Below, in pieces: positions 1,673 through 15,913 of a DNA stretch of 64,000 nt (position 1 is the first letter of the stretch; each line of letters starts with the position of its first letter). Source of the stretch: Candidatus Sericytochromatia bacterium (GTDB taxonomy: Bacteria; Cyanobacteriota; Sericytochromatia; S15B-MN24; UBA4093); the NCBI GenBank assembly GCA_036676985.1, contig JAKFBU010000077.1:1-64000 (forward strand), written 5' to 3'. The translations under genes and the position numbers were made by a program. The notes under the pieces were generated by a model, which saw nothing but the letters and a program-made list of their open reading frames with translations, had not been told where the DNA came from and did no database searches.

Positions 1673-3598
1673 TCATACTCCCGAGGGGCGGGCGTCGGTC
1701 CCGGCGCTCGTTTTCATTCCGAGCTTGCGGGCGGCGCCGAGCATCTGCTTCTCGAAGGACGCGAGCAGCTGCTCGAAGAAGCCGTGCGACTCCATCATCT
1801 CGGGCACGAACGGGTTCATGATCGTGCTGCGCAGGACCGTGAGGCTCTTGCCGTCCTCGAAGAGGGGCAACAGGGACGGGTGAAGTCGCGCCCGCACGCC
1901 CCGACCGTACTTCTTGAGGTCGAACTCGGTCTTGGACAAGAGGAAGTCGTAGCTGAAGACCAGGCGGTCCAGGTTGATGGCGAAGCGCTGGTAAAGCTCC
2001 TCGTTGAACCGGTTGATCTCGGCGAGCGAGGTCGCGCCCGGCGGTATGGCGATGAAGACCACCAGGTTCAGGTCCGGATCGTTCAGGGGCACGAGCTTGA
2101 AGCCATGGGGCGAGGTGAAGCCCTTGATGGCGTCCTTCATCTGACGCGCGGAGTTCGTCGTCTGCTCGATGAGCGTGCCGAAGCCCGTGGTGTTCAGGGG
2201 CAGCACCCGGTGGTTGAGCCACACGGCGGCGGCCGCAGCGCCCGGCTTGGAGCCCTCGACGATGTACTTGCCGATGGTGGTGTGGGGGATGCCGCCTTCT
2301 TCGTGGAAGACGTAGGGCGCGGCCACCGTGAGGAACTCGCGGACCCGCACGTCCTGGAACATGATGGCCCCCGCGGGGTACGGCGCGTAGCCCAGCTTGT
2401 GCGGGTCGATGGTGATCGAGTCCGTCTCCTGCAGGGCCTGGAAGCTCCGGGCCAGCTCCATGTCGAAGGCCGACTCCATCCAGTTACCGGCCTCGTCCCG
2501 GAACATGGCGGCGGCGTAGCCGCCATAGGCCCCGTCCACGTGGCAGTAGAAGTCGAGCCCACGGGCCTTGGTCTCGCGCTTGGCCTCGAACAGGCGATGC
2601 AGGGCGTCGACCGTGCCCGTCTCGGTGGAGCCGAGCACGCTCACCATGGCGAGCACCGGCACCTTCTGGGCGACGAGCTCTTCCAGGACGGCCGCGAACT
2701 GCGCCGGGTCGATGCGGTAGTCGTCGTCGACGGCGAGCTCCAGGAGCTGGTGCTGGCCCATGCCCAGCAGGTCCGCGATCTTGACCCAGGAGTAGTGCTT
2801 GGTGCCGGGCACGAGCAAGAGCGGCTCCGGCAGGGCCTCGCCCACCATGCCCTCGAAGACCCGGTGGAAGCGCAGGTAGCCCAGGGTGCCGAGGGAGTGG
2901 GCGTTGAGCTGGTCGGTGATGCGCGGGTCCTGCTCGGCGCGGATCAAGAGCGCCTCGCGCAGCTCGCAGATGGCGTCCATGGGAACGTTCATGAGCTGCC
3001 AGGCGTCGAGGTCCTTCAGCTCGCCCACGCCGCCCTCTGCCAGGCGCACGGGCAGACCCGTGAGATCCAGGAACCTTGCGGCCATGGCCGCGTTGGGCGG
3101 GAAGTACTTGAGGGCGCGGGCCGCCCAGAGCGCCTCGAGGTTCGCAACCGAGCCGCCCGACGTGAGGTGCCCCCAGGCGTTGGGGCCGTAGCCCACCAGG
3201 TTGGCCAGCTGCCGACCCACCTCCAGCTCCAGCTCGGTGGTGACGGGCGAGGCCTCCTCCGAGATGTTGTTGGGGTTGTAGAGCATCGCCGCGAAGTAGC
3301 CCACCATGGACGCGATGGTCACGTCGGTGGTCATGTGCGCGATGTAGCGGGGGCTGAAGGACGGCGCGCCCTGCTTGAGACGCGAGAGCAGGTAGTAGAG
3401 CTCCTGGCGCAGGCGCGCCATGGAGTCGTCGTAGGTCTGGCTGCGCTTGTCGGCCTCGCGAATGAACGGGCCGTCCTGCGGGTGGAAGTTGCGGCGCCAG
3501 AAGACGTGGTCCCGGAAGGCCTCCAGGATGAACTTCTCGGCGATGTCCGCATTCTCACCGGCCGGGCCCAGGAAAGCAGAGCTGAAATTCAGAGACAT
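1673..3598 (-). CDS. Group II PLP-dependent amino-acid decarboxylase (tyrosine decarboxylase-like)
   Basis: HVDGAYGG, SITIDPHKLGYAPY (PLP lysine), GHLTSGGSVANLEALW and EGSKPGAAAAAVW motifs. Confidence 0.88.
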   Translation of the reverse strand: MSLNFSSAFLGPAGENADIAEKFILEAFRDHVFWRRNFHPQDGPFIREADKRSQTYDDSMARLRQELYYLLSRLKQGAPSFSPRYIAHMTTDVTIASMVGYFAAMLYNPNNISEEASPVTTELELEVGRQLANLVGYGPNAWGHLTSGGSVANLEALWAARALKYFPPNAAMAARFLDLTGLPVRLAEGGVGELKDLDAWQLMNVPMDAICELREALLIRAEQDPRITDQLNAHSLGTLGYLRFHRVFEGMVGEALPEPLLLVPGTKHYSWVKIADLLGMGQHQLLELAVDDDYRIDPAQFAAVLEELVAQKVPVLAMVSVLGSTETGTVDALHRLFEAKRETKARGLDFYCHVDGAYGGYAAAMFRDEAGNWMESAFDMELARSFQALQETDSITIDPHKLGYAPYPAGAIMFQDVRVREFLTVAAPYVFHEEGGIPHTTIGKYIVEGSKPGAAAAAVWLNHRVLPLNTTGFGTLIEQTTNSARQMKDAIKGFTSPHGFKLVPLNDPDLNLVVFIAIPPGATSLAEINRFNEELYQRFAINLDRLVFSYDFLLSKTEFDLKKYGRGVRARLHPSLLPLFEDGKSLTVLRSTIMNPFVPEMMESHGFFEQLLASFEKQMLGAARKLGMKTSAGTDARPSGV

Positions 3599-3664
3599 GG
3601 CGGCATTCCATTTGGATATAAGAGGGCGCCTCCTTTCTTTAGCTCATTTCCGTCCATCACGCGT

Positions 3665-3679
3665 CCGTAAGTATTACGC
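3665..3679 (-). promoter_or_regulatory. Putative activator site (CCGT-N7-ACG family) upstream of the decarboxylase
   Basis: CCGTAAGTATTACGC; on the minus strand it is followed after 23 nt by TAAAGA (3636-3641). Confidence 0.5.
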
Positions 3680-3809
3680 TTGTGCGCCCTTTGCGGGCCC
3701 AGCGAGCCGCTTTCGCCATTAGACTTCGCCAATCTTCACGCCGCAGGGTGGGTCGGTCGTGCAGACTCGGGTCCGCGCGATCCGCGAGGACCCGTGAAAG
3801 GAGGCCCCC

Positions 3810-4148
3810 ATGGCCCGTTCCTGTCGCTACCTGCGCGTCCGTCCCCGCATGCACCCGAAAGCTCGGATCCGAGCCGTCCCGGCGGCCGGGGCGGCGCCGC
3901 GGGTCCGCCTGGGATCGGGGCTGGCGATCGCCCTTTTCCTCTCCACGCTGTTCGCCGTCTCGACCATCCTCCTGCTGATCCGCTCGTGGCTGATCGACGC
4001 CCCGGCCTCCGAGGCGGACGCCATGCTCATCCTCGGAGTCGGGGGCATCACATGGTTGACGTCGCTCGGGTATTACGCGCTGTGGCAGCTAGATAAGCGA
4101 GACATACCGCCTGTTAAGCGAGAATCGCAACAAATGCGAAATGATTAG
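3810..4148 (+). CDS. Small two-TM hypothetical membrane protein
   Basis: AGGAGG RBS before the ATG; two hydrophobic segments. Confidence 0.6.
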   Translation: MARSCRYLRVRPRMHPKARIRAVPAAGAAPRVRLGSGLAIALFLSTLFAVSTILLLIRSWLIDAPASEADAMLILGVGGITWLTSLGYYALWQLDKRDIPPVKRESQQMRND

Positions 4149-4252
4149 GGGTTCCTAATCGATATGTCATTAGAAGTGACTAATTCTTTCAGAAATTGGG
4201 GGGCTGAGGGGTAAATCTCCGACAAGGGTGACATTCCCACATCGGAGGACCA

Positions 4253-5194
4253 ATGAAGAAGCTTCCTAGACAACTCCTCGGAGTGGCCGCGCTCGGCGTG
4301 GCGGCGTGCACCTCCTCGCCGTTCGGGCCGACCGCGGCCCCCAGCACGCAGTTCGGACTCGAGCTCCAGAACCTGATCAGCCTCGACAAGGCACGCGGTC
4401 ACTACGAACTCTGGGTGGTGGGCGGCGGCACCCCCAAGAGCGCTGGCAAATTCCTCATCGGCACGGACGGCAAGCCCACGGATCTCGACGGCGCGGCCAA
4501 GACCACCTGGATCGCCGAGGCCAACGCCTCCGAGATCACCGACGTCTACGTCACCCAGGAGCAGCCCGCCGACGCCGACGCCAAGCCGAGCCGGCAGCAG
4601 TTCCTCACGGGCGTCCTCAAGGCGGGCAAGGCCACGCTATCGGCTCCCGTCAACGCCGCGGACGTCCAGACCAAGACGGGCGCCTACATCCTGGACAACC
4701 CCGTCACCGAAAAGGTCGCCAACGACTACAACGGCATTTGGTACTCCACCTACAGCACCGGCAAGTACACCCCGGGGCTCACGCTTGACGAGTCCCCGGA
4801 CGGCTGGCGCTACGCGGGCTGGGTCATCCTCGGCGGCAAGGTGCTCCGCACGGGCAAGTTCACCCACCCCATGGAGATGGACGACTGGTACGGCTACTCG
4901 GGCTTCAACTCGGTGTCCTTGCCCGTCAACTTCCCCGGGCCCCCGATGCCCGGCGAGGACTTCAACGTCAATGCCCCCGAGGGCCTGACCTTCGGCAACG
5001 GCCAGCCGGACCTCGCGGGCGCGCAGGTCATCATCTCGGTCGAGAGCGCGACGCTCTCGGGCGAGGAGACCTATCCCGGCCCCGTCCGCCTCTTCGAGGG
5101 CACCGTGCCCACCCCCTCGGCCCAGCGGGTGACCTACGACCTGACCAACGTGGCGGCGACCAAGGTCCCATCCGCCACCCTCACCGTGAAGTAA
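4253..5194 (+). CDS. Hypothetical lipoprotein
   Basis: GGAGG RBS; lipobox LGVAAC; strong GC3 codon bias; 10 nt upstream of the DHOR gene. Confidence 0.85.
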   Translation: MKKLPRQLLGVAALGVAACTSSPFGPTAAPSTQFGLELQNLISLDKARGHYELWVVGGGTPKSAGKFLIGTDGKPTDLDGAAKTTWIAEANASEITDVYVTQEQPADADAKPSRQQFLTGVLKAGKATLSAPVNAADVQTKTGAYILDNPVTEKVANDYNGIWYSTYSTGKYTPGLTLDESPDGWRYAGWVILGGKVLRTGKFTHPMEMDDWYGYSGFNSVSLPVNFPGPPMPGEDFNVNAPEGLTFGNGQPDLAGAQVIISVESATLSGEETYPGPVRLFEGTVPTPSAQRVTYDLTNVAATKVPSATLTVK

Positions 5195-5204
5195 GGAGCG
5201 CCCC

Positions 5205-6458
5205 ATGCAGACCAAGCACTACCTTGCCGCCGCGGCGCTCGGCCTCTTCCTGGTGGGCTGCCAGGCCGTCACCCGGGACCTCACGGCAAGCACGCCCGGA
5301 CTTCCCGGCAACATCGGCGACGAGAGCTTCACCCGCCCGCTTTCGGGCCTGAGCGAGGCCAACCTCGCCGCGTACCACCGGGGCCGCGAGCTCTTCGACA
5401 AGAACTTCACGCCCTCGGAGGGCCTGGGCCCCCTCTACAACAACACGAGCTGCAAGGCCTGCCACGGCTTCCCCAACTCGGGCGGCAGCTCGCCGGAGCT
5501 CCTGACCCTCATCGGCGGAGAGTCGAACGGCGCGCCCCGGACCCTCAAGGAGAAGGGCGGTCCGGTCATCTCCGATAAGTCCGTGCTCAGCGTGCCCCTG
5601 GAATCCCTGCCCCTGGAGACCAAGTACATCTCCAAGCGCATCTCGCCGGTGACCTACGGAACGGGCCTCCTCGAGGCCATCCCGGCCGCCGACATCACAG
5701 CACAGCTGGCGCCCTCGGCCCGCAAGCAGGAGCTCGGCATCAGCGGGCGCACCAACCTGGACGGCGACAAGATCGGCCGCTTGGGCTGGAAGGCCCAGAC
5801 CTCCGACATGCGCTCGTTCACGATCACGGCCTCGAACTTCGAGATGGGCCTCTCGAGCCCGGATCGTCCGTACGAATTCTTCCCCAACATCGGGCCCCAG
5901 ATGCTGGCGGCTCCGGCCCTCTACGCCACCGACAGCGCCAAGCTGGCGTTCGTCAAGGAGTACTTCGACGCCCGCGGCGCGGCCTCGGCCTCGACCGATC
6001 TCACGGCCCAGAACGTCGACGACCTCACGGCCTTCCAGCGCTACCAGGCGCCGCCCGTCCCCCTGGCCCTCACCGAGCAGGCCAAGCAGGGCGAGGAGGT
6101 CTTCAAGAAGATCGGCTGCGCCGAGTGCCATGCGCCCGGCTTCAAGACGGGCCCCAACTCCATCGGCATCCCCGAGGGCCAGACGGTCGCGGCCTACACG
6201 GACCTCCTCCTGCACGACATGGGGGCTGCACTCTCGGACGGCATCGCCTGGCAGGGCACGGCCAAGGGCTCGGAGTGGCGCACGACCCCGCTCTGGGGCC
6301 TGCGCTACCGCCGCTGGCTGATGCATGACGGCCGCACGGACAACCTGGAAGAGGCCATCCAGCTGCATGCGGGCGAGGGCCAGAAGGTCACCGACGCCTA
6401 CAACGCCCTCGCGACGGTCTCCAAGGACGCCCTGAAGGCGTTCCTGCTGTCGATCTAG
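5205..6458 (+). CDS. Di-haem oxidoreductase (DHOR/DUF1111-type) lipoprotein
   Basis: Lipobox LVGC; GLGPLYN, CKACH and CAECH haem motifs, GRLGWKA, YTDLLLHDMG, WRTTPLWG and MHDGR. Confidence 0.9.
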   Translation: MQTKHYLAAAALGLFLVGCQAVTRDLTASTPGLPGNIGDESFTRPLSGLSEANLAAYHRGRELFDKNFTPSEGLGPLYNNTSCKACHGFPNSGGSSPELLTLIGGESNGAPRTLKEKGGPVISDKSVLSVPLESLPLETKYISKRISPVTYGTGLLEAIPAADITAQLAPSARKQELGISGRTNLDGDKIGRLGWKAQTSDMRSFTITASNFEMGLSSPDRPYEFFPNIGPQMLAAPALYATDSAKLAFVKEYFDARGAASASTDLTAQNVDDLTAFQRYQAPPVPLALTEQAKQGEEVFKKIGCAECHAPGFKTGPNSIGIPEGQTVAAYTDLLLHDMGAALSDGIAWQGTAKGSEWRTTPLWGLRYRRWLMHDGRTDNLEEAIQLHAGEGQKVTDAYNALATVSKDALKAFLLSI

Positions 6459-6477
6459 GCTGCGAAAGGAGCCCCTC

Positions 6478-6738
6478 ATGAATGCGCTGCTTCCGGTCCA
6501 ACCGCTGCAAGGTGCGATCGCCCGCCAGTTGCCCCTCGCCATGGGGCTGGCGATCGCCCTGAGCGTGTCCCTTGCGAGCACGCAGCTCTTGGGCGCCGTG
6601 CCGAGCCCCATGGAGGGCGCGGCCGAGGGTCCGAGCACGAGCTGCGTCGGCTGCCACACCACCGAGGTTCCCGAGGGCGCTCCGCCGGAAGCGCCCGGCG
6701 GGACCGCCATGCAGCGCCAGGCGGAGTGCCGGCGCTAA
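6478..6738 (+). CDS. 86-aa exported or membrane peptide with a single CxxCH
   Basis: AAAGGAG RBS; hydrophobic segment LAMGLAIALSVSLA followed by SCVGCHTT; fills the gap between the DHOR and radical SAM genes. Confidence 0.65.
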   Translation: MNALLPVQPLQGAIARQLPLAMGLAIALSVSLASTQLLGAVPSPMEGAAEGPSTSCVGCHTTEVPEGAPPEAPGGTAMQRQAECRR

Positions 6739-6749
6739 CAGGAGGCCCC

Positions 6750-8066
6750 ATGTCCCCTCTGCTCTCGGCGGCGGCCCTGGACGCCGCCCGGGACCGCTTC
6801 GCCCGCTCGCTGGCAGCCCCCCAGTCCCGTCACTCCTATCCCTTGCCGGCCAAGAGCCGGCTCGGCGCCCCGACGGACCTCCATGCGGCCGGCGGTCCGG
6901 CGAGCCTGTACGTGCACATCCCGTACTGCTCGGCCCGTTGCACCTACTGCTTCTTCGTGACGCAGATTGGCCACGGGGCCAAGGACATGGCCCAGTACGT
7001 GGACGAGATCGCAGCCGAGCTCGCGCTCACCGAGCCTCACCTCGGAGGCTACAGCTTCTCGTCCCTCTACTACGGCGGCGGAACCCCGGGCCTCCTGCCG
7101 CCCGACTCCTTCAAGCGCCTGCACGAGCTCTTCGCGCCTCTGCTGGCTCCCGGGGCCACCGTCACGGTCGAGACCCATCCCCACGCGGCGGACGCCCAGC
7201 GCGTCGCTGCCTGGAAGGAGTGCGGCATCGACCGGGTGAGCGTCGGGGTCCAGACCACCGATCCGCACCTGCTCGAGATCGTCAACCGGGGGTTGACCGG
7301 CCCCCACATCGTCCCGGGCATCCAGCGCCTGCTCGAGGCGGGCTTCCAGGACGTCAACGCGGACCTGCTCTTCGGGCTGCCCGACCAGACCATGGAGAGC
7401 TGGCAGGACACCCTGGAGACCCACATCGCCACGGGCATCCCCAGCCTCTCCATGTACCGCACGTCCTACATCCCGGCTACCATCGAGGCCTTCCGCAAGC
7501 TGGGCGCGACCTTCCCGGCCAAGCAGGACATTTACGCCATGTACGCCCATGGCTTCCAGCGCCTCAACGAGGCGGGCTTCCTGCAGCCCCGCTACGGCTG
7601 CTCGACCTTCAGCCGCCACGCCTACCCCTTCGGCCTCAACACCCACCGCTATCACATCCTCCAGAACCGACCGATGGTCTGCCTGGGCATGGGCGCCTAC
7701 GGCTCGGTGGGCGGCTACGTCTACCTCAACCACCGCACGCGCGAGGCCTACCAGAAGGCGCTCGCCGACAAGCAAATGCCCGTGCTCGCGGCCACGCCCG
7801 TGGACCCCGAAGAGGTGCCCCACAAGTACGCGGTCGAGACCTGGAAGCTCGGCTTCTTGAGCCAGGGGGCCTACCACGAGCGGTTCGGAGAGATGGTCGA
7901 GGACCGCTTCGGCGCGGAGCTCGCCGTGCTCTTGGAGCTCGGAGAGCTGGAGCTGGTGGACCGCGAGTACCGCATGACCCGCCGGGGCGCCGAGCACCCG
8001 GACGTGATCGCCGACATGTTCGTGAGCGCGGCGGCCCACGCCTACGCCCAAGGAGGACGCGCATGA
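6750..8066 (+). CDS. HemN-like (class C) radical SAM enzyme
   Basis: SLYVHIPYCSARCTYC (CxxxCxxC), SLYYGGGTP, RVSVGVQT and NADLLFGLPDQT; AGGAGG RBS before ATG 6750. Confidence 0.9.
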   Translation: MSPLLSAAALDAARDRFARSLAAPQSRHSYPLPAKSRLGAPTDLHAAGGPASLYVHIPYCSARCTYCFFVTQIGHGAKDMAQYVDEIAAELALTEPHLGGYSFSSLYYGGGTPGLLPPDSFKRLHELFAPLLAPGATVTVETHPHAADAQRVAAWKECGIDRVSVGVQTTDPHLLEIVNRGLTGPHIVPGIQRLLEAGFQDVNADLLFGLPDQTMESWQDTLETHIATGIPSLSMYRTSYIPATIEAFRKLGATFPAKQDIYAMYAHGFQRLNEAGFLQPRYGCSTFSRHAYPFGLNTHRYHILQNRPMVCLGMGAYGSVGGYVYLNHRTREAYQKALADKQMPVLAATPVDPEEVPHKYAVETWKLGFLSQGAYHERFGEMVEDRFGAELAVLLELGELELVDREYRMTRRGAEHPDVIADMFVSAAAHAYAQGGRA

Positions 8067-8899
8067 CCCCCCCTCTCACCTTTCCCGAGGCCTACCGCCG
8101 GTACATGGCGGCCTTCGGCACGCCCGACCTGGACGAGATCGCGGCCGTCGGCGTCAAGTTCGTCAAGCGCGGGGAGACGCCGCCGCCCCAGGCGGCCCCG
8201 CTCGACATGGCCTACACCTGGTGCTATGCCGTCAAGCAGGCCTCCAGGGGCGAGGTGCCCCTGCTCACGCGGGACAACATCGGCTGCGTGATGGCGGCCA
8301 TCGCGCTCGGCCTGGTGGACGAGGACGACCCCAACCCGCTGCCCGGCTGGCGGCAGTACAGCCAGAAGATGGAGACGCCACCCGCGCCGCGGGACTACAA
8401 GGAGGGGCTCGTCTTCGGCTGCGCGGCGGCCGGTCGCCAGGACCTCGCCCTCTACGGCCCCGACGACCCGGGACGCTACCGCACCGTCGAGGCCGCGAAG
8501 AAGGCCTATGCCGGCATGCCCAAGATCCAGCCCGCCTGCATGGACGCGGTGGTGGCCTTCCCGCCCGAAGAGGAGCTCGCCGACATCACGCCGGACGTCG
8601 TGATCCTGGCCCTGACGCCGCGCGAGACGCTGCGCACCATCCAGTCTTTGACCTTCATGAGCGGCGAGCGCTTCGAGATGACCACCCTCGGGGTGGCGGG
8701 CTTCTCGGTGGACCTCACAGCACTGCCCTACGTGACGGGCAAGGCCAACGCGAGCTTCATGTGCGTGGGCGCCCGGGTGGTGGCTCGCTGGGACGGCAAC
8801 CTCAACGCCATGGGCCTTCCCTACGAGACCTTCCTCCAGGTGGTCGAGGGGATGGAGCTCTCGGCCCCGGGGTATCCATTTGCGAGGTACCCCGCATGA
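8063..8899 (+). CDS. DUF169 (COG2043)-like protein
   Basis: True start at an ATGA overlap with the radical SAM stop; WCYAVKQA-RG, IGCVMAAIALG, PDVVI..TP and PY..G..NASFMCVGAR match the DUF169 pattern as I recall it. Confidence 0.75.
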   Translation: MTPPLTFPEAYRRYMAAFGTPDLDEIAAVGVKFVKRGETPPPQAAPLDMAYTWCYAVKQASRGEVPLLTRDNIGCVMAAIALGLVDEDDPNPLPGWRQYSQKMETPPAPRDYKEGLVFGCAAAGRQDLALYGPDDPGRYRTVEAAKKAYAGMPKIQPACMDAVVAFPPEEELADITPDVVILALTPRETLRTIQSLTFMSGERFEMTTLGVAGFSVDLTALPYVTGKANASFMCVGARVVARWDGNLNAMGLPYETFLQVVEGMELSAPGYPFARYPA

Positions 8900-10299
8900 G
8901 CCGCGCGCGCCTCTACCTCGACCACGCGGCGACCTCGCCCCTGCGTCCCCGGGCGCGCGAGGCCATGGAGAGCGCCTGGCGCTGGAGCTACGGCAACTCG
9001 GCCAGTCAGCACACCGAGGGCCGTGAGGCTCGCCTGACCCTCGCCCAGGCCCGAGCCCAGGTGGCGGCCTTGGTGGGCGTCGCACCGGAGGGCGTCGTCT
9101 TCACCTCGGGCGCCACCGAGGCCACCAACCTGGCGGTCAGGGGCGCGGCCTACGCGCGGCGCTCGGAGCACCGGAGCGTCGTGTCGACGCGCCTGGAGCA
9201 CTCGGCCACCCTCAAGGCCTGCGAGGCCCTCGCCAACGAGGGCTGGGGCGTGAGCCTCCTGCCCTCCGATCGGAACGGGCGGGTCTCGGCGAGCGACCTT
9301 GCGCGGGTGCTGGAGCCGGGCACCGCCGTGGTCTCGGTGATCGCGGGCCACAACGAGCTCGGCACCGTCCAGGATCTCGTGGCCCTCGCGGAAGCGGCGC
9401 ACGCCGGAGGAGCCCTGTTTCACCTGGATGCCGTGCAGGCGGTCGGACACCTGGACCTGTCCCAGGTGCCGTGGGACCTGCTCTCCCTGTCTGCCCACAA
9501 GCTCGGCGGACCTCAGGGGATCGGCGCACTGGTCATGCGCGGCTCGCCGGCCCTGCGGCCGGTGCTCGTCGGGGGCGCCCAGGAGGGCGGCCTGCGGCCC
9601 GGGACCGTGCCCGTGGCGCTCGCGGCGGGCTTCGGCGCAGCCGCCGAGGAGGTGCGCCACCATCGCGGAGCGGAGGGAGCACGGCTTGCGGCCCTGCGCG
9701 ATCGCCTCGGCGCCCTCTTGAGAGAGCGGCGGCCGGACCTCTTGCCCATGGGCATGTGGGCCCACGACGCGAGCCAGGCGCTGCCGCACATCCTCGCGCT
9801 CGGGATCCCGGGCGTGAAGGGCGACGAGCTGGTCCATGCCCTGGACGAGCTGGGCGTGGCGGGCGCGTCGTCCTCGGCATGCCTGTCGGGGACGCGATCG
9901 CACGTGCTGGAGGCCGTCGGGCTCCCCGAGCACATCGGCGTCATGCGCCTGTCCCTCGGCTGGGACACCACGGAGCGGGAAATCGACACGGCGGCCAAGC
10001 GGATCGGCAAGGCCCTGGAGCATCTCATGTCCCTGGCGCCCTTCGAGCGGCGCCGAGGGCTCATCGCGCAGCGCGCCAAGGAGGCGGGAATCGTGCTCAC
10101 GCAGGCTCACTGGGAGGCGACCGAGGCGGTCTTCTCCTACCATCACGACGAGGGAATCCTCCCCGGGCCGCGCCACCTGGCGCGCGCCTTGGGCGCGGGC
10201 GTCACCCTCGATCAGCTCTTCCCCCGGGGGATCGCGACCATCGCGAGCTGGCTCGGCATCCCCACTCCCCAGGGCGGTTGCCGCCCTTACGCAGGGTGA
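8896..10299 (+). CDS. IscS/NifS-type cysteine desulfurase fused to a C-terminal TusE/DsrC-like domain
   Basis: ATGA overlap start; YLDHAATSP, FTSGATEATN, HLDAVQ, SAHK, RPGT and SSSSAC329; C-terminal GIVLTQAHWE...LFPRG...LGIPTPQGGC. Confidence 0.88.
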   Translation: MSRARLYLDHAATSPLRPRAREAMESAWRWSYGNSASQHTEGREARLTLAQARAQVAALVGVAPEGVVFTSGATEATNLAVRGAAYARRSEHRSVVSTRLEHSATLKACEALANEGWGVSLLPSDRNGRVSASDLARVLEPGTAVVSVIAGHNELGTVQDLVALAEAAHAGGALFHLDAVQAVGHLDLSQVPWDLLSLSAHKLGGPQGIGALVMRGSPALRPVLVGGAQEGGLRPGTVPVALAAGFGAAAEEVRHHRGAEGARLAALRDRLGALLRERRPDLLPMGMWAHDASQALPHILALGIPGVKGDELVHALDELGVAGASSSACLSGTRSHVLEAVGLPEHIGVMRLSLGWDTTEREIDTAAKRIGKALEHLMSLAPFERRRGLIAQRAKEAGIVLTQAHWEATEAVFSYHHDEGILPGPRHLARALGAGVTLDQLFPRGIATIASWLGIPTPQGGCRPYAG

Positions 10300-10766
10300 G
10301 CCCCGTGTTGTCGCCCGGACATGGGGCGAGCCTCGCCACGACGGCGGGCATCACGTCGGTCATCACCATGGTCATGGCGGCCTCGGTCTTGGGGCAGTGC
10401 AACGGCCTCACGGGAGCGGCCCAGACGCTCGCGGCCGGGACCTTGCTCGCGCTGGTGCTCGGGGCGGGGTTGCTCTACTCGGCCCGCGAGGCCATCGGCA
10501 CGGCCATGGACGTGGGGCCCGGCGATCCGACGGCCTTCCGGGCGCTCGCCGGCAAGGGCCTCGCCTCCTACCACTTCGGCAAGGCGTGCCTCTTCCTGGG
10601 GCTGGCATGCGGGATCGCATGGCGCGTGGCCCTGCCGCACGGCGAGCTCGCGTGGCTCGGGGTGCTGGGGGCCGTCGGGTTCTCCTTGGGAGCGGCTGCG
10701 CGCGGTGCGCGCTACATGGGGCCGGCGGGGTCGGGGCTGGCTCAGTCCGCCGCGCCGAAGCAGTAG
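10296..10766 (+). CDS. Four-TM hypothetical membrane protein
   Basis: GTGA overlap with the desulfurase stop; corresponds to the C-terminal part of ORF 9471..10766 and has four hydrophobic segments. Confidence 0.7.
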   Translation: MSPVLSPGHGASLATTAGITSVITMVMAASVLGQCNGLTGAAQTLAAGTLLALVLGAGLLYSAREAIGTAMDVGPGDPTAFRALAGKGLASYHFGKACLFLGLACGIAWRVALPHGELAWLGVLGAVGFSLGAAARGARYMGPAGSGLAQSAAPKQ

Positions 10767-11401
10767 CCCTTGCCGCGGATGGTCTGGATCCACGGCGCGC
10801 CCACCCGGTTGAGCTTGCGCCGCAGGTAGGTCACGTACACGTCCACGATGTTGGTGCCCGTGTCGAACGGCATGCTCCAGACGTCGGCAGCGAGGGTCTC
10901 ACGGGGGAGGATGGCCTCGGGGTGATGCATGAAGTAGGAAAGCAGCTCGAACTCGCGGTTCGTCAGGGCGACGCTCCGGCCGGCGCGCTCCACGGTGCGC
11001 TTGAACATGTCCAGGCGCAGGTCCCCGTAGGTCATGGTGCGGCTGAGCCGGCGGATCACAGCGCGCATGCGCTCGATCAGCTCGTCGTAGGGGATGGGCT
11101 TCTGGATGTAGTCGTCCGCTCCGCAGCGCAGGCAGCGGATGCGCCCGGGCGAATCGGCCTCGCTCGAGATCATGATGACGTAGGGGCTCGCCCCCGAGTT
11201 GAGCATCGAGCGGCAGGCGCCGAGGCCTTGCAGGCAGGTGAGCTCATCGTTCATCAGGCCGACCTGGTAGGTGTTGAGCCGGGCGAGCTCGATGGCGCGA
11301 TCGCTCTCGATCACGGCATCCACCGAGTGTCCGTCCGTCTCCAGGTCCTGCTTCAAGCGCAGGACCAGCTCCCGGTCATCGTCTGCCAACAACACTCGCA
11401 T
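10742..11401 (-). CDS. OmpR/PhoB-family response regulator with an atypical receiver domain
   Basis: MRVLLADDD, GADDYIQKP, LTNREFELL, NIVDVYVTYLRRKL and IQTIRGKGY. Confidence 0.9.
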   Translation of the reverse strand: MRVLLADDDRELVLRLKQDLETDGHSVDAVIESDRAIELARLNTYQVGLMNDELTCLQGLGACRSMLNSGASPYVIMISSEADSPGRIRCLRCGADDYIQKPIPYDELIERMRAVIRRLSRTMTYGDLRLDMFKRTVERAGRSVALTNREFELLSYFMHHPEAILPRETLAADVWSMPFDTGTNIVDVYVTYLRRKLNRVGAPWIQTIRGKGYCFGAAD

Positions 11402-11515
11402 GAGCACCCTCCATTGGCTGCGGTCACGTCGCTTCATAACGCACCCTATCAAGCCTGCCGCCCCGAGTCTTTGAGCGTGCTCATATTAGATACCGCTAAT
11501 TCTGTGTCTTGTAAT

Positions 11516-11559
11516 GAGCAGAAATTACGGTAGGCCGTCGTTTCTTGCTTGATTAGCAT
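11516..11559 (+). promoter_or_regulatory. Putative activator site plus -10 box
   Basis: GAGCAGAAATTACGG-N23-TAGCAT upstream of the YD-repeat gene. Confidence 0.45.
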
Positions 11560-11584
11560 GTCCTAACATCAGGAGGTACGTCAG

Positions 11585-12397
11585 ATGTCCGACCCCGTCA
11601 CCATTGGCGTTATCCCGGCTCCCGACGAGCTGCTCTCCCAGATCAAGGCCTCTGTCCAGAGCGTCAAATCTTTCCAATCGGGCCGGGTGAACAAGTACGG
11701 CAAGGTGGAGGGCGTCCGGGAGTATCCGGCGGCTCAGGCGCCCTTCGAGCGCCAGGATCATCACATGGACGCCAAGGGGCGGGTCGTCTACCTCGAAAAG
11801 TTCACGCGCGACTTCTCCAAGCCCACCATGCGCTGTTACCGCTATGAGGACGCCACGAGCGCCCTGACCGAGGCCATCTGGCTCGATCGCTACGGCCGGA
11901 TCGAGAACTACCACCGGTATCGCTACGACGAGATGACGGGCCTCTTGGTCTGGCGCGCCGAGTACGACCACGAGGGCAACCTCTTCTACTCCATCCAGTC
12001 GCGCTACGACGCCAAGAACCAGCTCGTCGACGAGACCTGGTTCGACCCCAAGAACCGCTTCATGAAGCGCTATGCCTACTCCTACGATGCCAAGGGCGAG
12101 CTCATCGGCGAGCTGCACTACGACAGCCGCAACGTCCTGACGGGCATCAACCGCTTCAAGTACGACGCCAAGGGCAACCTGCTCGAGCGCAAGTGGTGCG
12201 ACCCCGCGGACAAGGTCATGAGCCGCTTCGAGTACAGCGTGGATCACGAAGGGCGCGTCCTCGCGATGAAGCTCTACGGACCGGGCGGAAAGGTCCAGAT
12301 ACGCCAGGAGTTCGCTTACGACGGCAAGAATAACGTGGTCCGAGAAAAGTGGTTCGATGACAAAGGAACGCTCGTCAAGGATCTCCGGTACTCGTGA
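11585..12397 (+). CDS. Short YD-repeat (RHS-repeat-like) protein
   Basis: Tandem ~23-aa units such as YRYDEMTG, YDHEGN, YDAKNQ, YSYDAKGE, FKYDAKGN and FAYDGKNN; AGGAGG RBS. Confidence 0.85.
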   Translation: MSDPVTIGVIPAPDELLSQIKASVQSVKSFQSGRVNKYGKVEGVREYPAAQAPFERQDHHMDAKGRVVYLEKFTRDFSKPTMRCYRYEDATSALTEAIWLDRYGRIENYHRYRYDEMTGLLVWRAEYDHEGNLFYSIQSRYDAKNQLVDETWFDPKNRFMKRYAYSYDAKGELIGELHYDSRNVLTGINRFKYDAKGNLLERKWCDPADKVMSRFEYSVDHEGRVLAMKLYGPGGKVQIRQEFAYDGKNNVVREKWFDDKGTLVKDLRYS

Positions 12398-13766: not shown

Positions 13767-14030
13767 ATGGACCAGCTCTTGACCAAGCAGGAAGTCGCCG
13801 AGCGCGTCTCGCGCCTCAACCAGCTCGTGGCTCGCGAGTACGAGTTGCAGGAGCGATTGCTCGGCCTCAAGTTCCACGGCGCTCGCGACCACGTCGAGGA
13901 GGCCAAGAAGCAGCATGAGGAGACGATCCAGGAGATCGATCGCCTGCGTCACCAGGAGATGCTGCCGATCGTCAAGGAACTGAACGACTTCATCACCGCG
14001 GCCAAGGCCAAGCTGGGCAGGTCGTCATGA
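13767..14030 (+). CDS. Small coiled-coil hypothetical protein
   Basis: 87 aa, helical and charged; 6 nt after the upstream stop; ATGA overlap with the radical SAM gene. Confidence 0.8.
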   Translation: MDQLLTKQEVAERVSRLNQLVAREYELQERLLGLKFHGARDHVEEAKKQHEETIQEIDRLRHQEMLPIVKELNDFITAAKAKLGRSS

Positions 14031-15913
14031 CCGATCGGACGAGTCACGAGGAGGCCGGGACGTCCCGGCCTCCCAAGGTATTGCTGGTATTCGCCCCGCA
14101 GTGGTCCCCTCAGAACCCGCACTATTCCATGCGGGCCATCATGGGCCACCTGCGCCACCAGGGCATCCAGGTGGCGGTGCGGGATCTCAACGTCGAGTTC
14201 TACGACACGGTCCTGAGCCCCGAGTACCTGCGCCGGACCGCGGCCAAGGTGCGCCTCGCGCACAAGTACCTGGGTCATGTGAGCGCGCTCCGGATGCTGA
14301 GCGGCGACGATTCCATCGACGCGCGGATGGACGCCCTCCGCTTCGGGGCCATCAAGACCTACCTGGAGGAGAAGGAGCCCCTCCTCGACGAGCTGCCGCG
14401 GATCATCCTGGACGCCAAGGAGACGCTCAAGGACCCGCGCCGCTTCTACAACCCGGACCTCCTGATCGAGGCCTTCACCACCATCGACTGGGCCCTGGAG
14501 CTCGTCTCCCTGCCCTACACGCCCGCCTACCTCTCCTTCAACTACTTCGAGCAGCCGGACTGCCGCCTCAACGTCAAGAGCCTCATCGAGCACGCGACGA
14601 ACAAGAAGAACAACCTCTACTACGAGTTCTTCGAGGAGCAGATCGAGGGGCTGCTGGCCGAGGGCGCGGACTACATCGGCATCTCGATCAACGCCTTCTC
14701 GCAGGTGGTGCCGGGCCTGACGCTCGCCTACCTCTTGAAGCAGGCGGCCCCTCCGGGCATGCACGTGGGCATCGGCGGCAACTTCTTCGCGCGGGTCAAG
14801 AACGTGCTCGCCGAGCGCCCCGAGTTCTTCCGGACCTTCGCGCACAGCCTCGCCTGCGGGGAGGGCGAGCACCAGGTCACCTTGATGGCGCGCGCCCTGC
14901 ACGAGGGGCGATCGCTCGACGAGGTCCCCAACCTCCTCTATCTGTCGGAGGACGGCCAGACGGTGCACGTGACGCCGGAGGCCGAGGCGCCGCCGATGAA
15001 CGACATCGGCATCCAGGACCTGGAAGGCCTGCCGCTCGACAAGTACATGACCCCGGAGCTGGTCCTGACCATCCAGGCGAGCAAGGGCTGCTACTGGGGG
15101 GCCTGCACCTTCTGCGACACGGACTTCGGCATCCGCGTCGACCAGAAGTCCATCGACCGCCTGGTGGCCGAGATGAAGCACCTGCGCGATCGCTACGGGG
15201 TGAAGCACTTCCAGTTCGTGGACGAGGCCATCCGTCCGGTCTACATGCGGCGCATGGCCAAGACCTTCATCGAGGAAGAGCTGAACGTCCACTGGTTCTG
15301 CAACGGCCGGCTGGAGAAGGCGATCAACGCCGAACTCTTGCAGCTCTTGCACGACTCGGGCCTGCGCATGGTGCTCTGGGGCTTCGAGTCGGGCTCGGAG
15401 CGGATCCTCGAGCTCATCAAGAAGGGCATCGACGCCGAGCGCCGCTACGATATCCTGCAGGGTGCCAACGCCGCGGGCATCTGGAACTTCGCCTACATCT
15501 TCTTCGGCTTCCCCTCGGAGACGCTCGACGAGGCGCGCTCGACCATCGACGCCATCTGCCGGAACACGGACATCATCCATTCCTACGGGCGGTCGGTGTT
15601 CACGCTGGGTAAACAGAGCCCGTTGTTCCTGGAGGCGGCGGCGCACGGCATCGTAGACGTGATGGAGGATCTCGAGGAGCTGTCCACGAACCTGCATTAC
15701 CGGACGACGCTCGGGATGGACAACCGGGAGCTGACGCAGGTGCTCAAGGAGTGCACCCAGCGCTGCAGCGAGGCCTACGGCTACAACCTGTGGTTCTTCC
15801 TGCGCTACCGCGAGAACATCCACCTCTACGTGGCCAAGTACGGGCTGGAGTTCGTCAAGGACTACAAGATGTCCCGCTACGTCATTCCCAAGACGTGCGA
15901 AGAAGTCTTTTAG
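14027..15913 (+). CDS. B12-binding-domain radical SAM enzyme (class B-like)
   Basis: ASKGCYWGACTFC, YIGISIN, VGIGGN, GEGE, FQFVDEAI, WGFESGSERIL and FFGFPSET. Confidence 0.9.
   Translation: MTDRTSHEEAGTSRPPKVLLVFAPQWSPQNPHYSMRAIMGHLRHQGIQVAVRDLNVEFYDTVLSPEYLRRTAAKVRLAHKYLGHVSALRMLSGDDSIDARMDALRFGAIKTYLEEKEPLLDELPRIILDAKETLKDPRRFYNPDLLIEAFTTIDWALELVSLPYTPAYLSFNYFEQPDCRLNVKSLIEHATNKKNNLYYEFFEEQIEGLLAEGADYIGISINAFSQVVPGLTLAYLLKQAAPPGMHVGIGGNFFARVKNVLAERPEFFRTFAHSLACGEGEHQVTLMARALHEGRSLDEVPNLLYLSEDGQTVHVTPEAEAPPMNDIGIQDLEGLPLDKYMTPELVLTIQASKGCYWGACTFCDTDFGIRVDQKSIDRLVAEMKHLRDRYGVKHFQFVDEAIRPVYMRRMAKTFIEEELNVHWFCNGRLEKAINAELLQLLHDSGLRMVLWGFESGSERILELIKKGIDAERRYDILQGANAAGIWNFAYIFFGFPSETLDEARSTIDAICRNTDIIHSYGRSVFTLGKQSPLFLEAAAHGIVDVMEDLEELSTNLHYRTTLGMDNRELTQVLKECTQRCSEAYGYNLWFFLRYRENIHLYVAKYGLEFVKDYKMSRYVIPKTCEEVF

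Follow-up and report, generated by a model that had tools for sequence, protein, structure and literature searches.

Carriers of the DsrC/TusE family are thought to be loaded with sulfur via TusA and DsrEFH/TusBCD, and in ABA3/MOCOS a NifS-like domain is joined to a MOSC domain. The IscS-TusA-TusBCD-TusE-MnmA relay of E. coli, as outlined in the available parts of two reviews (PMC5372745, PMC5372717), starts from a class I desulfurase and uses a TusE-type carrier. In the natural desulfurase-rhodanese fusion CD-Rhd of Pseudorhodoferax, the C-terminal domain enhances both desulfurase activity and trans-persulfidation, according to the available part of the report, and the variants assayed included C466S (10.1101/2020.03.25.008375). 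We analysed a stretch of 64,000 nucleotides (the window; contig JAKFBU010000077.1, assembly GCA_036676985.1) from a Candidatus Sericytochromatia bacterium, in which one open reading frame (ORF; positions 8896..10299, + strand; 467 amino acids (aa) plus stop, no internal stop) encodes a class I cysteine desulfurase with a C-terminal DsrC/TusE-like domain. Our preferred reading, to which we give a probability of about 0.6, is that an accessory class I desulfurase has been fused to a truncated, single-cysteine DsrC/TusE-fold domain acting as a built-in persulfide carrier.

Comparison with CD-Rhd, as far as the available part of that report goes, showed the same layout, an N-terminal desulfurase followed by a C-terminal acceptor domain with one conserved acceptor cysteine. 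The acceptor fold is rhodanese in CD-Rhd and MOSC in ABA3/MOCOS, whereas it is DsrC/TusE here; fusions of a desulfurase to a carrier are already known in the first two forms, and the DsrC/TusE acceptor fold is a new variant. A literature search, made mostly by listings, yielded no paper describing a desulfurase-DsrC/TusE fusion. The E. coli relay is made of separate proteins, whereas in the present case both ends of the relay are in one chain and TusBCD was not found in the genome.

The tail of the fusion has the same helical fold as TusE (E. coli YccK) and the DsrC/TusE/RspA family (PF04358), with which it has in common the LFP-x-G and P-x-P-x-G-C arm motifs, a flexible C-terminal arm with a single conserved cysteine at its end and a presumed role as persulfide carrier. 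Members of that family are free proteins of ~110 aa with an N-terminal hairpin and a GC near the end of the arm, whereas the tail is the C-terminal domain of a desulfurase, has no hairpin (positions 1-25 of the Pfam model) and carries GGC followed by the five residues RPYAG. It also scores far below the cut-offs of the TusE equivalog NF008562 (12.2 bits instead of 191) and of the NCBIfam TusE/DsrC model TIGR03342 (23.1 bits instead of 53.5), and the TusE/DsrC partners TusBCD/DsrEFH and DsrAB have no counterpart for the fusion. The best sequence and fold matches of the tail are DsrC proteins of dissimilatory sulfite reductase (1yx3, 2xsj_C and 2v4j_C), and a swinging C-terminal arm would be present in both. 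DsrC in the strict sense, however, has a second redox cysteine, CysB, about 10 residues upstream, in place of which the tail has A/S-W, and no dsr genes are nearby. The DiSCo tool, in the available part of its description, recognises DsrC by AGLPKPTG-x-CA, and the IPTPQGGCRP of the tail departs from that motif by more than one residue (PMC8477390).

The first-pass annotation of this DNA had proposed a desulfurase fused to a sulfur carrier, and both the single ORF and its homologues bear this out. We found 31 further proteins of the same architecture (444-486 aa, 53-84% identity), the named ones from Candidatus Sericytochromatia and Planctomycetota metagenome-assembled genomes (MAGs), beneath which the homologue list falls to ordinary desulfurases of ~385 aa that align to the core only. 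The domain junction is spanned without gaps by contigs that come from other runs and in part from another study; a 723-base contig of a different study bridges it with zero differences, and no indels were reported within the fusion ORF among the contigs of other runs. Since homologues of the same architecture exist and independent contigs cross the junction, the fusion is not an assembly artefact. The tail appears to be under purifying selection and to be conserved as much as the core, their identities to the homologue of a related genome (G018) being 56% and 57%, respectively. The whole-protein AlphaFold2 (AF2) model has a predicted local distance difference test score (pLDDT) of 90.4 and a predicted template modelling score (pTM) of 0.89.

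The Aminotran_5/cysteine desulfurase core (residues 7-364; 8914..9987, + strand) matched Pfam PF00266 with 201 bits. The best of the NCBIfam models was NifS (residues 7-383, 307 bits against an equivalog cut-off of about 530), and DndA (285 against 480) and IscS (262 against 548) were likewise below their cut-offs, with full-length coverage in each case. From these profiles the core is classed as a class I (IscS/NifS/NFS1-type) desulfurase that falls in no named orthologue group. In a Foldseek search with the whole-protein model, the core matched NFS1, IscS and NifS (E down to 3e-38, target TM ~0.9), and human selenocysteine lyase was also among the structural matches. The presumed pyridoxal 5'-phosphate (PLP)-binding lysine, Lys202 (9499..9501, + strand) in SAHKLGGP, to which we assign this role from what is known of the family, is invariant together with H201 in 32/32 sequences. 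Class I desulfurases carry an SSGSAC-like motif at the catalytic cysteine, on a mobile loop. The predicted persulfide-forming catalytic cysteine, Cys329 (TGC, 9880..9882, + strand) in GASSSAC329LSG, is invariant in 32/32, and residues 328-331 of its loop have a pLDDT below 50 in the whole-protein model. The PF00266 score, the invariant K202 and Cys329 and the Foldseek matches agree with the complete IscS-type domain announced by the first-pass annotation; its placing of the catalytic cysteine at residue 329 was right, but the motif it gave there as SSSSAC reads ASSSAC.

The interval 10042-10299, singled out beforehand as a tail of ~85 aa, corresponds to residues 383-467. It opens with a linker helix (10042..10065, + strand; helix 382-396 in the model) in which F383, R385 and R386 of F383-x-R385-R386 are invariant, and continues with an all-helical DsrC/TusE-fold domain without the N-terminal hairpin (residues 391-460; 10066..10275, + strand). 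Pfam DsrC (PF04358, cut-off 24.9 bits) matched residues 391-460 with 25.0 bits when the whole protein was scanned and with 29.5 bits when the tail was scanned alone, over positions 26-105 of the 107 of the model, the N-terminal ~25 positions (the hairpin) being unmatched. When a profile of 13 tails was compared with all PDB sequences, the top 8 matches were all DsrC/TusE chains (E 3e-7 to 0.024), with 1yx3 the best (E 3e-7). Alignment by hhalign of the tail profile with four DsrC-like proteins, three of which score 90-129 bits on Pfam DsrC and the fourth of which (P0128) was not scanned, gave a probability of 98.4% (E 9e-15).

Modelled alone (pLDDT 87), the tail consists of helices only and has no strands, as would be expected if the N-terminal hairpin were missing, which the first-pass annotation had also noticed. 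Foldseek placed DsrC/TusE proteins at ranks 1-7 (probability 0.96-1.00, TM 0.53-0.66), and VIA-align against 48,161 representative chains placed D. vulgaris DsrC first (Z 8.0) and an A. baumannii DsrC-family sulfurtransferase second (Z 7.6), the next match having a Z of 5.5. The DsrC HMM and Foldseek, by which the first-pass annotation had suggested that a DsrC/TusE-like tail be checked, thus both returned this family. Among 1.84 billion representatives, a phmmer search with a single tail sequence picked up no more than 10 proteins at E<=0.001, and precomputed Pfam annotation flags DsrC in 1/32 listed proteins, so that routine annotation mostly overlooks the tail. The DsrC sequence signal in the tail is real yet thin, and profile and fold methods agree.

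The fusion protein holds three cysteines in all (109, 329 and 462), of which only Cys329 (32/32) and Cys462 (31/32 aligned sequences) are conserved. Cys462 (TGC, 10279..10281, + strand), the presumed carrier (CysA-like) cysteine, is located in P-x-P-x-G-G-C-R-P on a predicted disordered arm and aligns one residue beyond the G of the DsrC PKPTGC motif (the arm has GGC). Within the tail, conservation in the 32-sequence alignment is highest in the arm motif W-L-G-[IL]-P-x-P-x-G-G-C-R-P, and the position of DsrC CysB is occupied by A/S-W across the family. The lone terminal cysteine of TusE type, the missing second DsrC cysteine and the RPYAG extension had all been described in the first-pass annotation, which had made its reading depend on the conservation of Cys462, and in each of these points it agrees with the sequences.

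Several results weigh against the reading of the tail as a DsrC/TusE-type carrier. The Pfam score is borderline, at 0.1 to 4.6 bits over the cut-off, and that of TIGR03342 is well short of its own; Pfam DsrC matched 18/32 family members at E<=0.01, and the other 14/32 had no such match. None of the Foldseek E-values of the tail (0.01-0.16) reached 0.001. Cys462 is absent from one homologue (P0006) and lies six residues from the C-terminus, not in the penultimate position as in DsrC/TusE. Finally, searches for stand-alone relatives of the tail yielded no unfused (Rosetta-stone) version of the gene cluster to which the fusion belongs.

The whole-protein model bears on how the tail might work. 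Helices 382-453 are confident, and the low-confidence segments are the Cys329 loop and residues 460-467 (pLDDT below 50), a pattern compatible with a docked domain whose arm is free. In Foldseek, the long alignments to IscS/NFS1 reach 408-413 columns (the core alone gives ~388) and extend past residue 383, which suggests that the linker of the tail corresponds to the C-terminal segment of IscS/NFS1. In the IscS-IscU and NFS1-ISCU complexes, the C-terminal segment of the desulfurase borders the acceptor site reached by the cysteine loop. Because of these longer alignments and of what is known of the complexes, we infer that the appended domain appears to be placed after the segment bordering the IscU/ISCU acceptor site.

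In the mechanism that we propose, sulfur from L-cysteine would be moved at the PLP site (Lys202) onto Cys329 on its mobile loop, and Cys462 on the disordered arm would take the sulfane sulfur from its own chain or from the dimer partner. The arm would then swing out, as in DsrC, and deliver the sulfur to a partner from the same operon; the first recipient would be the DUF169 protein encoded next to the fusion, acting together with a HemN-like radical S-adenosylmethionine (SAM) enzyme. The analysis shows the architecture, the fold, the conservation of the two cysteines and the synteny of the operon; the persulfide transfer as well as its direction, its recipient and the final product we infer. 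A hand-off from Cys329 to Cys462, within a chain or within a dimer, would be the most economical reading, and a built-in shuttle the simplest mechanism, because only two cysteines are conserved and both are in low-confidence segments of a confident model. The existence of a natural fusion argues for direct loading of a DsrC-fold arm by a desulfurase, and the fusion offers a one-protein model for this hand-off.

The fusion gene occupies the third position in a tight array of four genes. The HemN-like radical SAM gene (6726..8066, + strand; Pfam Radical_SAM 77.9 bits) has a stop that overlaps the start of the DUF169 gene (ATGA), and the DUF169 gene (8063..8899, + strand; 278 aa; PF02596 113.5 bits) has a stop that overlaps the start of the fusion (ATGA at 8896-8899). 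The fourth gene, directly 3' of the fusion, encodes a small hydrophobic (membrane) protein of about 153 aa (10305..10766, + strand; GTG at 10305, start uncertain). The best NCBIfam models for the radical SAM protein, STM4012 (178 bits against a cut-off of 380) and ChuW/HutW (161 against 400), were below cut-off.

Gene order was compared among the window, two related genomes (G018 and G017) and four metagenome loci (L107, L108, L110 and L111); a further locus, L109, agrees with G018 in size and identities and was counted once. The DUF169 and radical SAM genes are 5' of the fusion in 6/6 loci with upstream sequence (the radical SAM gene of L111 is interrupted by the contig end), and the small membrane protein is 3' of it in 7/7 loci. 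Across these loci the identities are 70-82% for DUF169, 57-64% for the fusion and 32-67% for the radical SAM protein, which makes DUF169 the best conserved member of the cluster. The G+C content of one fusion locus is 55%, compared with 67-73% in the others. The distribution of the fusion is rare and patchy: it was found in 3/41 related genomes, that of the window included, and in 3/401 genomes sampled from the phylum.

DUF169 (COG2043) is an orphan family widespread in bacteria and archaea, and our literature search found no paper giving it a function. Its close subfamily numbers about 47 sequences (65-91% identity), with a gap down to 45% after them, and several of these sequences are on contigs equal in size to the fusion-bearing ones. 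Cys54, Cys75 and Cys234 are invariant and one further cysteine is near-invariant; the gene is single-copy in the genome of the window. Comparison of DUF169 with PDB sequences gave no match, an Atlas search gave no new lead, and a survey of its context in other genomes found it present in 1/5, on short contigs. DUF169 is favoured as the recipient because of its translational coupling, its co-distribution, its best conservation and its three invariant cysteines; on genomic context it would be the most likely first recipient of the sulfur, over the other partners.

A lipoprotein-like ORF of 313 aa with no known family (4253-5194, + strand) is paired with a gene for a di-haem DHOR protein (5205-6458, + strand; PF06537 149.8 bits); the pair adjoins the cluster in 4/5 loci with enough flank, is absent from L110, and changes sides, being upstream in the window and L108 and downstream in G018 and G017. 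Just 5' of the radical SAM gene of the window is an ORF of 86 aa (6478..6738, + strand); its N-terminus is hydrophobic, and it contains one CVGCH (CXXCH) motif followed by a Pro/Glu-rich stretch. The motif recurs ahead of the radical SAM gene in L108 (about 4480-4690) and L096 (about 7390-7540), which with the window makes three loci, with weak tblastn scores, and the ORF may encode either a monohaem protein anchored in the membrane or a peptide that serves as substrate.

An extended and rather doubtful proposal would place all of these in an undescribed sulfur-insertion pathway made up of the CXXCH protein, the HemN-like radical SAM enzyme, DUF169, the fusion and the membrane protein, with the lipoprotein and the di-haem protein often adjoining. 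A DsrC-fold arm loaded by its own desulfurase, with no TusA/DsrEFH, would hand persulfide to DUF169, which, in concert with the radical SAM enzyme, would make a cofactor or modification that contains sulfur and is possibly related to haem, for the neighbouring envelope haem proteins. The strict linkage of the fusion to a HemN-like radical SAM enzyme and to a DUF169 subfamily of high conservation leads to the testable hypothesis that DUF169 takes part in sulfur trafficking, and the pathway, if true, would be the first to assign DUF169 (COG2043) a function, namely that of an acceptor or scaffold for sulfur.

The same neighbours could be read as a dedicated iron-sulfur supply, in which the tail, similar in role to SufE/SufU/CsdE, would feed a scaffold, possibly DUF169, for the [4Fe-4S] cluster or clusters of the adjacent radical SAM enzyme, with no sulfur in the product. 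NifS as the best desulfurase model, the cluster requirement of the radical SAM enzyme, the three invariant and one near-invariant cysteines of DUF169, and the placing of the appended domain where IscU binds in the IscS/NFS1 complexes (from the Foldseek alignments and knowledge of the complexes) are all consistent with this. We nevertheless consider it unlikely. The genome has other desulfurases, by which the many further radical SAM enzymes it encodes are presumably matured; one of these desulfurases (on contig C46), a match to the first half of the query only, was read as a putative SufS-type paralogue, and no IscU-, NifU- or SufB-like gene is within the cluster. DsrC/TusE proteins are not known to act as Fe-S assembly factors.

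That the tail is not a carrier at all, and serves as a structural, docking or regulatory module, either through a helix-turn-helix (HTH)-like surface or through a Cys462-Cys329 disulfide that would gate activity, seems to us quite improbable. The DsrC fold does include an HTH-like motif, the lower fold matches of the tail are TetR and Fur DNA-binding domains, weak LexA_DNA_bind matches occur in related stand-alone DsrC-like proteins, and the domain appears rigidly docked in the model. The best conserved stretch of the tail, however, is the arm motif around Cys462, which is the functional element of DsrC/TusE carriers, and a gating disulfide would use the same two cysteines anyway.

The first-pass annotation had taken the fusion for a short-cut of the E. 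coli relay from IscS through TusA and TusBCD to TusE, which in E. coli leads on to MnmA and tRNA. Searching the genome for the parts of that relay lent it some colour and then left little of it. The tail is of TusE type with one cysteine, MnmA is present, and the fusion is the only DsrC-family match above the Pfam cut-off; the DsrE/TusBCD family (PF02635) had no match at E<=0.01 in this genome, which is rated 100% complete. A TusE domain passing sulfur directly to MnmA for tRNA 2-thiouridine, in place of TusA and TusBCD, would be in keeping with these results. However, since the genome has no DsrE/TusBCD-family match, there is no longer relay to bypass here; its TusA-domain gene is on contig C53. 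MnmA is encoded on another contig (C28) and is found in 39/41 related genomes, the two misses being genomes 64% and 75% complete, compared with 3/41 for the fusion, so that relatives have MnmA without the fusion, which itself is always within the radical SAM-DUF169 cluster. With MnmA unlinked and near-universal in relatives that have no fusion, MnmA is, as far as the evidence goes, not the recipient. In many bacteria outside the Gammaproteobacteria MnmA is loaded directly by a desulfurase, and the 12.2 bits of the tail against the TusE cut-off of 191 point the same way, which leaves the short-cut a thin prospect.

Other desulfurase paralogues are encoded on contigs C38, C23, C53 and C46 of the genome, and because of them the fusion desulfurase would have an accessory role. 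A scan of the genome contigs with the full-length alignment returned generic IscS/NifS loci only (core patterns). A match to selD (G000:C26:280471-281394, - strand; 387 bits) with one in-frame TGA suggests that this genome encodes a selenocysteine-containing SelD. A selenium version of the mechanism, in which a selenocysteine lyase would load the arm cysteine with a selenopersulfide for the cluster partners, could draw on that SelD, on the human selenocysteine lyase among the structural matches of the core and on a comparative-genomics table that, in the available part of the paper, has a DUF169 gene among the YedE-linked candidates in a selenium-using organism (PMC5322559), but the SelD gene lies on a different contig, the score with the selenocysteine lyase model is 84 bits compared with 307 for the cysteine desulfurase model and one table entry is what links DUF169 to YedE, which makes the selenium version very improbable.

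The search for an unfused form of the carrier led to other systems. The nearest stand-alone relatives of the tail are proteins of 79-81 aa ending in PEGC, named TusE/DsrC, from Anaerolineae MAGs, and none of this PEGC type was found in 5 Chloroflexota genomes. A sample of 401 Chloroflexota genomes contained 3 weaker stand-alone matches at 36-43% identity, two of which have flavin oxidoreductase and DsrE-like genes as neighbours, unlike the third (L120), and none of the three adjoins a gene for a desulfurase, DUF169 or a radical SAM protein. On the basis of their neighbours we rejected these DsrC-like genes, which belong to a different system, as Rosetta-stone support. In two of these three Chloroflexota genomes, at L121 (6606-8691) and L122 (7501-9622), the DsrC-like gene, hairpin-less in the former (79 aa) and full length in the latter (104 aa), is located between a flavin disulfide oxidoreductase gene and a DsrE2-like gene, a compact sulfur-relay triplet unrelated to the cluster of the window.

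The small hydrophobic protein 3' of the fusion belongs to no Pfam or NCBIfam family and had no useful Atlas neighbour. Contigs from two runs of one other study have a 4-base deletion at 10306-10311, just past the stop of the fusion; because it hits the presumed GTG start, the true start of this gene may be further downstream than 10305. The Rfam models gave nothing at E<=1 over 3400-11700, with no known riboswitch upstream, and a promoter/terminator scan gave no signal over the shuffled background. The cluster is flanked by genes for a tyrosine-decarboxylase-like PLP enzyme (1676-3598, - strand) and an OmpR-type response regulator (10742-11452, - strand), and L108 has the same two genes on its flanks (72-2051 and 8695-9351), which may simply reflect the relatedness of the two genomes. 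Further downstream, at 13767-15910 (+ strand), an ORF of 87 aa is directly followed by a gene for a B12-binding radical SAM protein of 628 aa, the best model of which, a RiPP (ribosomally synthesised and post-translationally modified peptide) maturation C-methyltransferase, is below cut-off; the two may form a peptide-modification pair.

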